Assembly: GCF_009931435.1 (NCBI RefSeq)
Contig: NZ_CP043414.1
Reading direction: 5' to 3' (one strand)
Source of the DNA: Escherichia coli
GTDB lineage: Bacteria > Pseudomonadota > Gammaproteobacteria > Enterobacterales > Enterobacteriaceae
DNA: 64,000 nt
Shown here: positions 56,288-59,898 of the stretch, piece by piece
Position numbering within the stretch: the stretch's first letter is position 1
Layout: each line of letters begins with the position of its first letter
Translations under genes and position numbers: made by a program
Notes under the pieces: model-generated
Database searches by the model: none
Seen by the model: the letters and a program-made list of their open reading frames with translations, nothing else
Told to the model about the DNA's origin: nothing

Positions 56288-57829
56288 ATGCGTAAGATAA
56301 CAACCGCCGAGACACTGGCGGCGCAAATTCAGGACGGCGCAACCATTGCCATTAGCGGTAATGGCGGCGGCATGGTGGAAGCGGACCATATTCTGGCTGC
56401 TATTGAAGCGCGTTTCCTGCAAACCGGACACCCGCGCGATCTGACATTAATCCACTCGCTGGGCATTGGCGATCGCGACTGCAAAGGCACTAACCGCTTT
56501 GCTCATGCAGAGATGCTCAAACGCATTATTGCCGGACATTTTACCTGGTCGCCCAAGATGCAGGATCTGGTAAAAAACAATGCTATTGAAGCCTACTGCT
56601 TCCCTGGTGGCGTAATTCAGGCACTGCTGCGGGAGATCGGTGCCGGACGTCCAGGGCTTTTTACCCACGTTGGACTGGGATCGTTTGTTGATCCGCGCAA
56701 CGGCGGCGGTAAGTCGAACGCTAGCAGCACTGAGGATCTGGTAGAACTGATTGAAATCGACGGTGAAACCAAACTTCGTTATCGCCCCTTCAAAGTGGAC
56801 TACGCGATTTTGCGTGGCACTTATGCCGATCCGCGTGGCAACGTCAGCCTCGAAGAAGAGGCGATTGATATGGATAGCTATTCCATGGCGCTGGCAGCAC
56901 ACAACAGCGGCGGCAAAGTGTTCGTACAGGTGCGCGATGTGCTGGAAGCTGGTGCCATTGAACCACGCCGGGTCAAATTACCGGGCATTCTGGTTGATGG
57001 CATCGTTGAACACCGCGAACAACCGCAAACCTATCTTGGCGGTTACGACCTGACCATCAGCGGTCAGCATCGCCGTTTGAGTTCTAACGACGCTATTGAA
57101 CTGGTTAGTCATCCGGTGCGCCGCCTGATTGCCCGTCGGGCAGCACGCGAACTGGTGGCTGGCGCTTCAACCAACTTTGGCTTTGGCATTCCCGGCGGCA
57201 TTCCTGGGGTTGCACTGCGCGAAGGCGTGCCTTATCAAAGTTTATGGATGAGCGTCGAGCAAGGCGTACATAACGGCATGATGCTGGATGATGCTCTATT
57301 CGGCTGCGCCCGTAACGCCGATGCCATTATTCCGTCACTCGATCAGTTCGAGTTCTACAGCGGCGGCGGCATCGACATTACTTTCCTCGGTATGGGTGAG
57401 ATGGATGAGTACGGTAACGTCAACGTCTCCCATCTCAATGGCAATCTCATTGGCCCCGGCGGATTTCTCGAAATTGCGCAAAACGCCCGTAAAGTGGTGT
57501 TCTGTGGCACGTTCGACGCCAAAGGTAGCACGATTGATGTAACACCAGATGGCTTGCATATCGCCCAGTCAGGTCAAATCCCTAAACTGGTTACCCAGGT
57601 GGAAAAAATCACTTTTAGCGCCGCCTACGCACAGCAAAGCGGTCAGGAAGTGTTGTATATCACTGAACGTGCAGTATTCCAGTTAACAGCAGAAGGCGTT
57701 GAATTAATTGAAATCGCACCAGGTGTGGAGATTGAGCGCGACATTCTGCCATATATGGCTTTCCGTCCAATTATCAATCAGCCACGCCTGATGGAAAGTA
57801 GCCTGTTTACGCCGATGGAGGATGCATGA
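56288..57829 (+). CDS. Family-I CoA-transferase (fused alpha/beta, YdiF/propionate-CoA-transferase-like)
   Basis: 513-aa ORF resembling fused short-chain acyl-CoA:acetate CoA-transferases; ends in an ATGA overlap with the next gene. Confidence 0.7.
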   Translation: MRKITTAETLAAQIQDGATIAISGNGGGMVEADHILAAIEARFLQTGHPRDLTLIHSLGIGDRDCKGTNRFAHAEMLKRIIAGHFTWSPKMQDLVKNNAIEAYCFPGGVIQALLREIGAGRPGLFTHVGLGSFVDPRNGGGKSNASSTEDLVELIEIDGETKLRYRPFKVDYAILRGTYADPRGNVSLEEEAIDMDSYSMALAAHNSGGKVFVQVRDVLEAGAIEPRRVKLPGILVDGIVEHREQPQTYLGGYDLTISGQHRRLSSNDAIELVSHPVRRLIARRAARELVAGASTNFGFGIPGGIPGVALREGVPYQSLWMSVEQGVHNGMMLDDALFGCARNADAIIPSLDQFEFYSGGGIDITFLGMGEMDEYGNVNVSHLNGNLIGPGGFLEIAQNARKVVFCGTFDAKGSTIDVTPDGLHIAQSGQIPKLVTQVEKITFSAAYAQQSGQEVLYITERAVFQLTAEGVELIEIAPGVEIERDILPYMAFRPIINQPRLMESSLFTPMEDA

Positions 57830-59898
57830 GTCAGCTTGATGACACCCTCCTTGATGCGCTGACGCACGTCACTTTCCCGAAGGGTTTTGTGTCAGCAGAG
57901 CCAGCGTCAATTGTCACGGTTGAAGATGTCGATTACCCGATCTGGCAAGTTGATGCGCTAGTCGTTGGTAGCGGCGCGGCAGGGCTGCGCGCAGCGGTTG
58001 AACTTAAGCGCCGCCAGCAAAATGTGCTGATCGCCACCGCCGGGTTATATATGGGGACATCGGCATGTTCTGGTTCCGATAAACAGACGCTGTTTACCGC
58101 CGCTACCGCGGGCAACGGCGATAACTTCGCCAAACTGGCGGAAGCACTGGCGAGCGGTGGGGCGATGGATCACGACACCGCTTATGTCGAAGCGGTAGGT
58201 TCTCTGCACACTCTTGGCGGGTTGCAATATCTTGGTCTGGAATTACCGGAAGATCGCTATGGCGCAATTCTTCGTTATCAAACCGACCATGACGAATCCG
58301 GGCGAGCAACCTCGTGTGGGCCGCGTACCTCAAGGTTAATGGTGAAAGTGCTGCTGGAAGAAGTACAGCGCCTCGCCATTCCAGTGTTGACCAGTGCAAC
58401 AGTGATTAAACTGCTGCATCAGCGTGGCGAAAACGGCGAAGACCGCGTGGCGGGAGCAATCCTCGCGACCGGTCATCGCGCCCATAACCCTTGGGGGCTG
58501 GCAATTGTGACGGCGCCCAATGTGGTACTGGCAACGGGCGGACCGGGCGAGCTTTATCGCGACAGTGTTTATCCACATAAATGCTTCGGCTCGCTGGGAC
58601 TGGCACTGGAAGAAGGTTTGACGCTAACCAATCTGACCGAAAGCCAGTTTGGTATAGGCACGCCGCGCAGCACCTTTCCGTGGAATTTGTCCGGCACCTA
58701 TGTACAGGTGATCCCATATATCTATTCCGTAGATGCCGGGGGCAACGAGTATAACTTCCTCGCGGATTACTATCGAACGACCCAGGAACTGGCTTCAAAC
58801 ATCTTCCGTAAAGGCTATCAGTGGCCATTCCACGCCACGCGGGTAATGGATTTTGGCTCCAGTTTGTTAGATATGGCGGTGGCGCAAGAGCAGCAATCAG
58901 GGCGTCAGGTATTTATGGATTTCAATCGCAATCCTGAATCTGTGCCGGGTGACCTGCCGTTCTCATTAGATCGACTGGACGACGACGTTCGCGCGTATCT
59001 GGAAAATAACGACGCTCTGGCACCATCGCCCATCGAACGACTGCAACGAATGAATCCGCTGTCTATCTCGCTGTATAAGATGCACGGTTACGATCTCACC
59101 ACGCAGCCATTGCAGTTTGCCATGAATAATCAGCATATGAATGGCGGCATTGAAGTGGATATCTGGGGGCAAACCTCCCTGCCCGGCTGTTTCGCCGTGG
59201 GGGAAGTTGCTGGCACACACGGCGTCACTCGCCCTGGTGGTGCGGCATTGAATGCCGGGCAGGTTTTTGCTGTTCGTCTGGCACGTTTTATTGGTTGCAC
59301 GCAAAAACGTAATATTGATGGAGATATAGCACAGCTGGTAGCTCCGGCACTGGCTTCTATAAGAGAGATCATTACTCAGGCGCACGATAACGGGACCGGG
59401 ATGCCGTTGTCGATTGTGAGAGAAAAAATTCAGGCACGAATGTCTGACTATGCGGGATTTATTTGCCATGCCGATAAAGTTCGACGTGCCACTCGTGATG
59501 CCCTGCTATTGAGTGAATTTGTCCAACAGCATGGATTGGCAATCAAACATGTGGGCGAAGTTGCCGAGCTGTTTATGTGGCGGCATATGGCACTGACGTC
59601 TACCGCCGTATTAACGCAATTGACGCATTATATTGATGCTGGTGGTGGTAGCCGTGGGGCGCGTATGGTTATTGATCCACAAGGCAAATGCCTACCACAA
59701 ACTCGTCGCGGCGCAAAAGAAGAATGGCGTTTTCGCTCTGAACTCGCTGAAGACAAAAATCACAAATTAACAATTCAATATTCGCAAGGTTCTTTTATTA
59801 CCGAAGTAAAGTCTTTACGTATGCAACCGTGTATTAACGGTATTTACTTTGAAAAAAACTGGCCAGACTTTTTAAAGGGAGACATTTACACACAGTAA
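57826..59898 (+). CDS. FAD-dependent oxidoreductase of the fumarate reductase/succinate dehydrogenase/L-aspartate oxidase flavoprotein family
   Basis: 690 aa with GSGAAG dinucleotide motif, LATGGPGELY and GEVAGTHG...GGAALNAG segments resembling NadB/FrdA; extra C-terminal region of about 150 aa. Confidence 0.75.
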   Translation: MSQLDDTLLDALTHVTFPKGFVSAEPASIVTVEDVDYPIWQVDALVVGSGAAGLRAAVELKRRQQNVLIATAGLYMGTSACSGSDKQTLFTAATAGNGDNFAKLAEALASGGAMDHDTAYVEAVGSLHTLGGLQYLGLELPEDRYGAILRYQTDHDESGRATSCGPRTSRLMVKVLLEEVQRLAIPVLTSATVIKLLHQRGENGEDRVAGAILATGHRAHNPWGLAIVTAPNVVLATGGPGELYRDSVYPHKCFGSLGLALEEGLTLTNLTESQFGIGTPRSTFPWNLSGTYVQVIPYIYSVDAGGNEYNFLADYYRTTQELASNIFRKGYQWPFHATRVMDFGSSLLDMAVAQEQQSGRQVFMDFNRNPESVPGDLPFSLDRLDDDVRAYLENNDALAPSPIERLQRMNPLSISLYKMHGYDLTTQPLQFAMNNQHMNGGIEVDIWGQTSLPGCFAVGEVAGTHGVTRPGGAALNAGQVFAVRLARFIGCTQKRNIDGDIAQLVAPALASIREIITQAHDNGTGMPLSIVREKIQARMSDYAGFICHADKVRRATRDALLLSEFVQQHGLAIKHVGEVAELFMWRHMALTSTAVLTQLTHYIDAGGGSRGARMVIDPQGKCLPQTRRGAKEEWRFRSELAEDKNHKLTIQYSQGSFITEVKSLRMQPCINGIYFEKNWPDFLKGDIYTQ

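Follow-up and report, generated by a model that had tools for sequence, protein, structure and literature searches.

The window analysed here is a 64,000-nucleotide stretch of Escherichia coli DNA (contig NZ_CP043414.1 of RefSeq assembly GCF_009931435.1), within which a 690-residue flavoprotein is encoded as part of a small operon. Judged by its modelled fold and its motifs, this protein is a member of the FrdA/SdhA/NadB superfamily, and profile comparisons place it in a distinct, large and so far uncharacterised subfamily whose capping-domain active site appears to have changed. It is proposed--tentatively, and with somewhat less than even confidence--that the flavoprotein is a soluble, cytoplasmic Cα–Cβ dehydrogenase, which would act on a free sugar acid by means of non-covalently bound flavin adenine dinucleotide (FAD) and would belong to a TetR-repressed catabolic operon. 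The substrate of that operon is most probably an imported, hydroxylated organic acid, with a hexuronate-like sugar acid as the likeliest candidate from comparative sequence analysis.

The flavoprotein gene is real and intact, because it occurs in thousands of near-identical copies and has full-length homologues down to 35% identity. An initial annotation, made from the letters of this DNA, had described a stand-alone protein of 690 residues with a GSGAAG dinucleotide-binding fingerprint, an ATGA overlap with the stop codon of the preceding coenzyme A (CoA)-transferase gene, and no iron-sulfur or membrane-anchor partner; each of these features is indeed present. The flavoprotein ATG (57826-57828) overlaps the CoA-transferase TGA (57827-57829), and no iron-sulfur, cytochrome or membrane-anchor gene was found by Pfam among the operon genes, the neighbours instead being a short-chain dehydrogenase/reductase (SDR), a TIM barrel, a crotonase of the enoyl-CoA hydratase (ECH) type, the CoA-transferase and a transporter of the major facilitator superfamily (MFS). 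Within the flavoprotein itself Pfam detects FAD_binding_2 (PF00890) alone, at residues 43-475 (E = 3.9e-27; 95.9 bits vs a gathering threshold of 20.4). A few E. coli records contain a single open reading frame (ORF) that fuses the CoA-transferase to the flavoprotein (1078 and 1043 residues); given the ATGA overlap, such a fusion can be reached through a one-base frameshift.

An AlphaFold2 (AF2) model of the flavoprotein, computed from 47 homologues, was obtained with a mean predicted local distance difference test score (pLDDT) of 93.3 and a predicted template-modelling (pTM) score of 0.94. Foldseek matches it best to full-length FrdA and SdhA structures (E of about 1e-29, with FrdA at 6.5e-30, at 14-19% identity), which superimpose over the whole length with target-normalised TM-scores of 0.77-0.79; these are followed by the 3'-phosphoadenosine-5'-phosphosulfate/adenosine-5'-phosphosulfate (PAPS/APS) reductases and NadB. 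Profile-profile alignment (hhalign) against a FrdA/SdhA/NadB alignment yields a probability of 99.9 and equates residues 36-617 with FrdA residues 1-539. The architecture is FrdA-like--four domains, with a family-specific capping domain among them.

This alignment bears upon the region beyond residue 475, in which the initial annotation had seen roughly 150 extra C-terminal residues. No such extension exists, because residues 476-690 match the ordinary helical and C-terminal domains common to FrdA and SdhA, which merely lie beyond the reach of the Pfam model. The end of the helical domain is marked by S609-R610-G611, the counterpart of the ESRG motif of FrdA, SdhA and NadB, after which 79 residues follow in the flavoprotein, as against 63 in FrdA and 27 in NadB. 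The translation ends in ...CINGIYFEKNWPDFLKGDIYTQ followed by the stop codon, and this C-terminus is kept throughout the family, residues P668, F675, E676 and W679 being nearly invariant. Some of the length that is truly additional comes from about 35-40 N-terminal residues ahead of the GSGAAG motif; a further part lies within the capping-domain stretch, which spans 143 profile positions between two aligned blocks vs 91 in NadB.

Comparison with the named protein families of NCBIfam places the flavoprotein outside all of those against which it was scored. Its best NCBIfam match is TfrA (NF004900), at 123.8 bits vs a cut-off of 718, followed by the NadB models (TIGR00551, 101 vs 452.75; PRK07804, 106.9 vs 639), the SdhA/FrdA models (TIGR01812, 80.4 vs 567.3; PRK09231, 42 vs 854; TIGR01816, 44.2 vs 727) and the flavocytochrome c model (TIGR01813, 36 vs 285); all of the NCBIfam matches thus fall 4- to 25-fold under their cut-offs, and identity to any protein in the PDB is at most 19%. 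Because these cut-offs are missed so widely and because the capping-domain residues have changed, the flavoprotein is, on sequence grounds, not a fumarate reductase, succinate dehydrogenase, aspartate oxidase or thiol:fumarate reductase. Nor does it have the two-domain architecture of KstD, flavocytochrome c and UrdA, inasmuch as the helical domain with its SRG motif is present; Pfam finds no FMN_bind or cytochrome domain in it. Orthology to a characterised enzyme, which had been named at the outset as a ground for refutation, was not found: searches of the PDB by sequence and by fold, of NCBIfam, of Pfam and of the full-text literature returned no characterised member or orthologue, and the full-text searches likewise returned nothing on this island.

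The subfamily is nevertheless extensive. When 1.84 billion cluster representatives were scanned exhaustively with HMMER, 419 clusters (at 50% identity) had E ≤ 1e-30, many of them proteins of 640-700 residues that align from about residue 30 to residue 688 at 35-59% identity, and a scan of one genome per species found a relative in at least 596 genomes. Database names for these proteins go no further than 'FAD-binding protein', 'FAD-dependent oxidoreductase' and, in error, 'succinate dehydrogenase flavoprotein subunit'.

The active site is conserved in one half and altered in the other, so that the NadB/FrdA-like active-site segments noted in the initial annotation are only partly retained. 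What stands is the substrate-binding pair of the FAD domain: His437 (59134-59136) and Arg469 (59230-59232) correspond to His355/Arg390 of FrdA and to His351/Arg386 of NadB, and are invariant in the 47 homologues. What does not stand is the capping-domain part: in the hhalign alignment FrdA His232 (within QYHPTG) is deleted, the flavoprotein reading QF---G276 with an invariant Gly, and the FrdA segment TEGCRGEGG, which carries Arg287, Glu245 and Thr244, is replaced by PWN----LSGTY. This capping stretch is the most divergent part of the alignment, where column equivalence is uncertain, and it contains no invariant Arg or His; the invariant polar and aromatic residues of the family's own capping domain are W286, N287, S289, Q294, K329, Y331, W333, S345, S346, D349 and R405. 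A histidine that could bind flavin covalently, for which a check had been recommended, is absent: FrdA His44 aligns to a gap and no His occurs within residues 70-90. The loop that replaces the covalent-flavin segment of FrdA reads GTSACSGSDKQT, of which GSDKQT is invariant, and the flavin would accordingly sit in the protein non-covalently, as the loop and the gap suggest.

These features define how the flavoprotein resembles, and departs from, its best-known relatives. Like E. coli FrdA (PDB 1kf6/5vpn) and SdhA, it has the GxGxxG motif, the His/Arg pair and the ESRG counterpart within a fold that matches over its whole length; unlike them, it lacks His44, His232 and the Arg287/Glu245/Thr244 segment, is accompanied by no FrdB/SdhB or anchor genes, has the extra N-terminal residues and the longer capping-domain stretch described above, and scores 42-80 vs cut-offs of 567-933. 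NadB (PDB 1chu, 5kxj) likewise is stand-alone and soluble, binds FAD non-covalently and provides the best sequence match in the PDB; however, in the flavoprotein NadB His244 is deleted and the Arg290 segment replaced, the tail after the SRG motif is longer, and the genomic context is a catabolic operon rather than NAD biosynthesis. A functional analogy may be TcuA of Salmonella, a FAD_binding_2 family protein that dehydrogenates a free organic acid at Cα–Cβ and that is encoded, together with a transporter, in a small accessory catabolic operon; both proteins are partner-poor. TcuA, however, has only about 470 residues and depends on the membrane iron-sulfur protein TcuB, for which the operon contains no similar gene; no TcuA model is among the matches listed, and no direct comparison with TcuA was made.

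Further information about function comes from the genes with which members of the subfamily are associated. ORFs were called at 80 loci, neighbours within 8 kb were clustered and the clusters were annotated. The partner conserved most widely is the SDR cluster (29 of the 80 loci, spanning Proteobacteria, Planctomycetota, Lentisphaerota, Opitutia and Firmicutes), and a second conserved partner is the TIM barrel of the type found in the window (13 loci). Gfo/Idh/MocA dehydrogenases occur at 25 loci, LacI regulators at 20, KdgK-like PfkB kinases at 16 and KDPG (2-keto-3-deoxy-6-phosphogluconate) aldolase at 13; the YdiF-like CoA-transferase occurs at only 6, of which 4 are enteric. Operons whose flavoproteins are 54-59% identical to that of the window contain SDR, Gfo/Idh/MocA, TIM-barrel and flavoprotein genes but no genes for CoA enzymes, the crotonase/CoA-transferase pair having been replaced. 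Thus Pseudescherichia, Phytobacter and Mangrovibacter have a TetR gene followed by SDR, Gfo/Idh/MocA, TIM-barrel, MFS and flavoprotein genes; Lentisphaeria have the order TIM barrel, Gfo/Idh/MocA, SDR, flavoprotein; and in Brenneria a TetR gene precedes SDR, TIM-barrel and flavoprotein genes and then a PcaK-like MFS gene of the aromatic-acid type. In a neighbour-joining tree the flavoproteins of CoA-type operons (from enterics, and from a Rhodocyclaceae genome and a betaproteobacterium) interleave with those of Gfo-type operons within the clade of more than 54% identity, and only two alignment columns, residues 96 and 504, separate the two types, both outside the conserved motifs. Between regulator and operon, moreover, E. 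coli, Klebsiella, Salmonella, Brenneria, Pseudescherichia, Phytobacter and the Rhodocyclaceae metagenome-assembled genome (MAG) all have a palindrome of the TCAACCA...TGGTTGA type. From this interleaving, from the paucity of differing columns and from the common palindrome type, it is concluded that TetR, SDR, TIM barrel and flavoprotein probably make up a conserved core dealing with one and the same molecule or with closely similar ones, and that the crotonase/CoA-transferase pair and the Gfo/Idh/MocA enzyme would be alternative accessory modules.

Other arrangements occur farther afield. Alpha-proteobacterial loci encode LacI, Dabb, a levoglucosan-dehydrogenase-like Gfo/Idh/MocA protein, the flavoprotein, a KdgK-like kinase, two glucose-methanol-choline (GMC) oxidoreductases and a sugar ATP-binding cassette (ABC) system; Phycisphaerae encode a fusion of old yellow enzyme (OYE), Fer4_20 and Pyr_redox_2 domains, an SDR, KDPG aldolase, a BNR_4 propeller, the flavoprotein and a PfkB kinase resembling the one for KDG (2-keto-3-deoxygluconate); and a Desulfobacterales genome contains a mixed cluster of CoA and sugar-acid enzymes. 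The Rhodocyclaceae MAG has a TetR gene followed by genes for MaoC, SDR, TIM barrel, ECH, CoA-transferase, flavoprotein and the DctQM subunits of a tripartite ATP-independent periplasmic (TRAP) transporter, DctP being encoded nearby, whereas the betaproteobacterium has the order CoA-transferase, ECH, DctPQM, MaoC, acyl-CoA dehydrogenase (ACAD), EtfBA, TIM barrel, flavoprotein.

The transporters linked to the core in the closest clade are all of organic-acid types, namely an MFS protein of the anion:cation symporter (ACS) family (the window), one of the aromatic acid:H+ symporter (AAHS) family (Brenneria), TRAP systems and a Peripla_BP_6 ABC system. TRAP systems are found in Rhodocyclaceae, in the betaproteobacterium and in 1446 E. 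coli genomes, and the nearest PDB structures to WP_000695886.1, the DctP binding protein of the E. coli TRAP variant, are 4ovr, 4x8r, 4n8y, 4n15/4ln5, 4n91 and 4mij/4mhf (E = 6e-72 to 1e-59). Among these, 4X8R binds glucuronate and 4N8Y galacturonate (PMC11668362), 4N91 binds D-glucuronate, 4MHF is a binder of D-glucuronate and D-galacturonate, and 4N15 served as the template for a model of glucuronate-binding STM3169 (PMC7660916). The DctP of the betaproteobacterial operon is most similar to 4nx1/4ovp (4e-84). The ligands of 4NX1 and 4OVP we take to be taluronate and mannuronate, and that of 4OVR galacturonate. Taken with the KDG-kinase-like and KDPG-aldolase genes near the flavoprotein in other phyla, the evidence from the transporters points to a hexuronate-like sugar acid. 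Directly upstream of the flavoprotein gene in two Phycisphaerae loci (L070, 8411-9925; L082, 8364-9905) is a gene for a BNR_4 beta-propeller, a neighbour that hints at an acidic sugar released from polysaccharide.

Whereas the fold and motifs of the flavoprotein, and the operon with its conservation and distribution, are observed, the following account of substrate class, reaction direction, electron acceptor and partner roles is inferred. His437 and Arg469 would hold the carboxylate of the free acid, while the alpha carbon would lose a proton and the beta carbon would pass a hydride to N5 of FAD, in the manner of succinate dehydrogenase and TcuA; a beta-hydroxy sugar acid would in this way yield a keto or enol product, and the electrons would then pass to a quinone or to O2, as in NadB, KstD and TcuA. 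The adjoining keto and hydroxy intermediates would fall to the TIM-barrel isomerase and the SDR. The task of the crotonase and CoA-transferase could be a CoA-assisted dehydration (or beta-elimination), hydration or alpha-epimerisation of the same skeleton, with recycling of CoA as for CaiB and CaiD, and the Gfo/Idh/MocA enzyme could accomplish the same step through transient oxidation. In the carnitine system of E. coli, CoA is recycled between substrate molecules, CaiA being of the acyl-CoA dehydrogenase family and CaiB a family-III transferase. There too a CoA-transferase and a crotonase (CaiD) act on a hydroxy acid beside a flavoprotein oxidoreductase, but the present operon has an FrdA-like flavoprotein and a family-I, YdiF-like transferase instead. 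The hexuronate and KDG pathways (UxaC-UxuAB, KduI-KduD, KdgK-Eda) offer another parallel, in that they are served by ExuT-family or TRAP-type uronate transporters, that KduD has the SDR fold, and that a KdgK-like kinase and KDPG aldolase adjoin the flavoprotein in other phyla; to our knowledge, however, none of them uses a flavoprotein, a TIM-barrel enzyme of the AP_endonuc_2 family or CoA thioesters. A role as a periplasmic respiratory reductase is unlikely, because the flavoprotein contains no signal peptide, FMN-binding or haem domain, or CxxC motif.

Several observations weigh against dehydrogenation of a free sugar acid. The match of the TRAP binding protein to uronate binders is moderate (245.7 bits over about 290 residues), and that protein belongs to the alternative variant of the island rather than to the window; the capping-domain residues that transfer protons in FrdA and NadB are missing; and no electron acceptor or donor is encoded near the flavoprotein. 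E. coli, moreover, already has complete pathways for glucuronate and galacturonate (UxaC/UxuAB/UxaAB and KduID), and therefore the operon substrate is probably a different stereoisomer or a derivative. Two further observations favour, instead, a CoA thioester as substrate. In the window the flavoprotein is translationally coupled to the CoA-transferase, an adjacency that recurs in the distant Rhodocyclaceae operon; and in Marinobacterium and one other genome an ACAD stands beside SDR and TIM barrel in the place of the flavoprotein, as would be expected for acyl-CoA dehydrogenation and as suggests a possible non-orthologous functional displacement.

If so, the flavoprotein would be a non-canonical acyl-CoA dehydrogenase or enoyl-CoA reductase receiving its thioester from the upstream CoA-transferase within a beta-oxidation-like or Cai-like sequence. 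Consistent with this are the CoA-transferase, MaoC dehydratase and ACAD genes that surround the flavoprotein gene in the betaproteobacterium and in Desulfobacterales (the former having crotonase and electron transfer flavoprotein (ETF) genes as well), and the GGGIELALCCD and PEVMLG sequences of the window's crotonase, which we take to be the motifs bearing its two catalytic Glu residues. Such a substrate is regarded as a serious rival but a less probable one than a free acid: no CoA-activating gene lies within 8-10 kb in most members of the family, including those 54-59% identical, CoA-type and Gfo-type operons do not differ in their active-site invariants, and the retained His/Arg pair is the one that binds carboxylate in FrdA and NadB. 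The known substrates of the superfamily are free acids, a sulfonucleotide (APS) and steroid ketones, and we know of no characterised FrdA/SdhA/NadB superfamily member that acts on a CoA thioester. The initial annotation had taken the coupled expression to imply such a substrate; that step is not supported, inasmuch as the operons of close relatives lack CoA enzymes and it is the SDR and TIM barrel that travel with the flavoprotein, and a conserved core with swappable modules makes a CoA-thioester substrate less likely. The clusters in question in Marinobacterium (locus L093, 8062-10846) and the second genome (L094, 6870-10858) have the arrangement ACAD-SDR-(DUF993)-TIM barrel with no FrdA-like flavoprotein, DUF993 being an uncharacterised family; their regulators are of the TetR_C_29 type, and further genes encode a crotonase, a GMC oxidoreductase, an aldo-keto reductase and an aldehyde dehydrogenase. 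Genes for ETF and for ETF-quinone oxidoreductase (ETF-QO) occur at L093, and CoA-transferase genes near L094.

The Gfo/Idh/MocA partners raise yet another scenario, in which the flavoprotein would be a desaturase like KstD, introducing or removing a C=C bond beside a ring ketone (in a cyclitol, carbasugar or keto-sugar) that the SDR or the Gfo/Idh/MocA enzyme would supply, with the TIM barrel as an inosose-type isomerase or dehydratase. The Gfo/Idh/MocA partners are similar to inositol 2-dehydrogenase and to levoglucosan dehydrogenase (NF052479, 294 bits), the sole named PDB relatives of the TIM barrel are IolI and ketose 3-epimerases, and sugar ABC transporters, LacI regulators and GMC oxidoreductases are encoded at the alpha-proteobacterial loci. 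Yet KstD is absent from the top 50 Foldseek matches of the model, where FrdA, SdhA, NadB and APS reductase come first, the transporters of the closest clade are of organic-acid types and the carboxylate-binding His/Arg pair is invariant, which together make a desaturase of this sort quite unlikely. Less likely still is a NadB-like oxidase of a C-N or C-O bond, which would convert a 2-amino or 2-hydroxy sugar acid into a 2-keto acid and deliver electrons to O2 or fumarate. Such an activity would accord with the position of the similarly stand-alone NadB among the best sequence matches and with a pathway that in other phyla, to judge by the KdgK-like kinase and KDPG aldolase alongside, seems to finish at 2-keto-3-deoxy sugar acids; against it are the deletion of the residue equivalent to NadB His244, the replaced Arg290 segment, the TIGR00551 score of 101 vs a cut-off of 453 and the absence of deaminase-related or ammonia-handling genes nearby. 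As to the pathway as a whole, one for quinate/shikimate or for an alicyclic acid is less well supported than one for a sugar acid: in its favour are the paralogy of the CoA-transferase to YdiF, the PcaK-like transporter of Brenneria and ACADs that resemble cyclohexanecarboxyl-CoA dehydrogenase, but the TIM barrel has no match to dehydroshikimate dehydratase at E ≤ 0.01 and it is with uronate binders that the TRAP binding protein groups. Also considered was the acyl-CoA-dependent deoxyribonate cluster of Klebsiella michiganensis; it is a different locus and comprises a CoA synthetase, hydroxyacyl-CoA dehydrogenase, thiolase, CoA-transferase, glycerate kinase and lactonase (PMC6365646).

Returning to the sugar acid, a more elaborate proposal is possible, though on balance doubtful: that the flavoprotein, an FRD/SDH-superfamily enzyme acting on a hexuronate-like sugar acid, forms with the SDR and the TIM-barrel isomerase the core of an undescribed route ending in KDG-type intermediates, within which crotonase/CoA-transferase and Gfo/Idh/MocA would be interchangeable for one step. 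If this is true, a sugar acid would be a substrate class not yet known for the FRD/SDH superfamily, and most E. coli, the Klebsiella oxytoca group and Salmonella would possess the route, which would have been missed because K-12 deleted the operon. Knowing the substrate would give the metabolic map of commensal and pathogenic enterobacteria one more nutrient, possibly a uronate from host or diet such as iduronate, mannuronate or guluronate, and would assign a chemistry to a subfamily that occurs in at least 596 species, marine lineages of Planctomycetota, Lentisphaerota and Opitutia among them. The exchange of crotonase/CoA-transferase for Gfo/Idh/MocA would constitute a natural experiment, with two chemistries serving one pathway. 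Were the substrate a simple enoate, on the other hand, the flavoprotein would be a routine new member of its family.

The flavoprotein gene is present (at 80% coverage or more) in 3122 of 5426 complete E. coli genomes. An operon at a fixed chromosomal site in about 58% of these genomes has thus remained without an assigned function, evidently because K-12 keeps only the pseudogene ytfA, a 402-bp TetR remnant that alone lies between its ytfB and yjfZ genes. Two alternative forms of the island occupy the ytfB-rplI site in E. coli: the form with the MFS gene and yjfZ, as in the window, occurs in 1660 complete genomes, while the TRAP form, in which DctQ, DctM and DctP genes follow the flavoprotein gene and yjfZ is absent, occurs in the 1446 genomes mentioned above and is intact in E24377A, as ECE24377A_RS25245-25285. 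The Klebsiella oxytoca group and Salmonella have the same operon at the same chromosomal site, the enzymes being 77-94% identical.

In the window the gene order is cycA, fklB, ytfB, the divergent TetR gene, SDR, TIM barrel, crotonase, CoA-transferase, flavoprotein, MFS, yjfZ, rplI; the features discussed here are collected in Table 1.

Table 1. Positions of the operon genes and of motifs within the flavoprotein, numbered from the first letter of the window.
Feature	Coordinates	Strand	Basis or remarks
Divergent TetR-family regulator (TetR_N + TetR_C_29)	52990..53697	-	Pfam; intact counterpart of K-12 pseudogene ytfA
Predicted TetR operator, 22-bp palindrome ATCAACCAACTAGATGGTTGAT	53760..53781	.	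Inverted repeat between TetR and SDR genes
SDR, 263 residues	53849..54640	+	Pfam adh_short_C2; PDB 4da9, 4one
Xylose-isomerase-like TIM barrel (AP_endonuc_2), 280 residues	54650..55492	+	Pfam
Crotonase-type enoyl-CoA hydratase/dehydratase, 260 residues	55496..56278	+	Pfam ECH_1
Fused alpha/beta family-I CoA-transferase, 513 residues, YdiF paralogue	56288..57829	+	Pfam CoA_trans; PDB YdiF 2ahu, 6.2e-113
GGAGG Shine-Dalgarno (57817-57821) and ATGA start/stop overlap (57826-57829)	57817..57829	+	Sequence reading
Flavoprotein ORF, 690 residues	57826..59898	+	Stand-alone FrdA/SdhA/NadB superfamily member, FrdA-like four-domain architecture, family-specific capping domain
GSGAAG dinucleotide-binding motif, residues 48-53	57967..57984	+	Translation; G48, G50 and A52 invariant in 47 homologues
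Family-specific invariant loop S81...GSDKQT (residues 83-88)	58066..58089	+	Replaces FrdA RSHTVAAEGG loop bearing His44
Segment from His437 to Arg469, retained FAD-domain substrate-binding pair	59134..59232	+	phmmer, hmmsearch, hhalign
S609-R610-G611, counterpart of ESRG motif, end of helical domain	59650..59658	+	Profile searches, hhalign
MFS transporter, anion:cation symporter (D-galactonate/hexuronate/glucarate) type, 425 residues	59991..61268	+	Pfam MFS_1; TIGR00893, 315 bits

The RefSeq version of the TetR regulator, at a locus 97.9% identical, has 215 residues and starts about 60 nucleotides further in. Regulators with TetR_C_29 domains flank the related operons of Klebsiella, Salmonella, Brenneria, Pseudescherichia and Rhodocyclaceae, and the palindrome between the TetR and SDR genes of the window is probably the TetR operator. 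Among named families the SDR is generic, scoring above the cut-off of NCBIfam PRK12745, which is a name only. The TIM barrel, to which databases give the generic name 'sugar phosphate isomerase/epimerase', matches two uncharacterised structural-genomics entries, 3qc0 and 3ju2 (E = 7e-86), very closely, and also 7vpf (1e-60), whereas its relationship to IolI, IolO, Hyi, OtnI and ketose 3-epimerases is only weak. The crotonase is nearest to short-chain hydratases and dehydratases, its best PDB match being the 3-hydroxypropionyl-CoA dehydratase 5zai (1.3e-40). The MFS protein is the probable importer of the operon substrate; in comparison with the Klebsiella and Salmonella counterparts it is only 50-51% identical, vs 77-94% for the enzymes. 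Because of this lower identity and because G+C content (between 59000 and 62500) drops from 0.53-0.55 over the enzyme genes to 0.40-0.47 over the MFS gene and yjfZ, the transporter end of the island appears to have a separate history.

The island DNA of the window is about 94.8% identical to that of most E. coli, the best match (97.9%) being to two records labelled E. coli; an origin in a divergent Escherichia lineage, or in one outside E. coli, would fit these values. In NZ_CP104665.1 and NZ_CP114227.1 the island match is split by an ISEcp1 element with blaCTX-M-15--that is, a resistance transposition unit lies inside the operon region. On one Logan-assembled contig of the TRAP type (L096, 10001-12960) the TIM barrel is truncated to 207 residues and the CoA-transferase is split into pieces of 151 and 339 residues; many database entries under the names E. 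coli and Shigella contain the same 207-residue TIM protein, which suggests that the operon is decaying in the TRAP-type lineage that carries this truncation.

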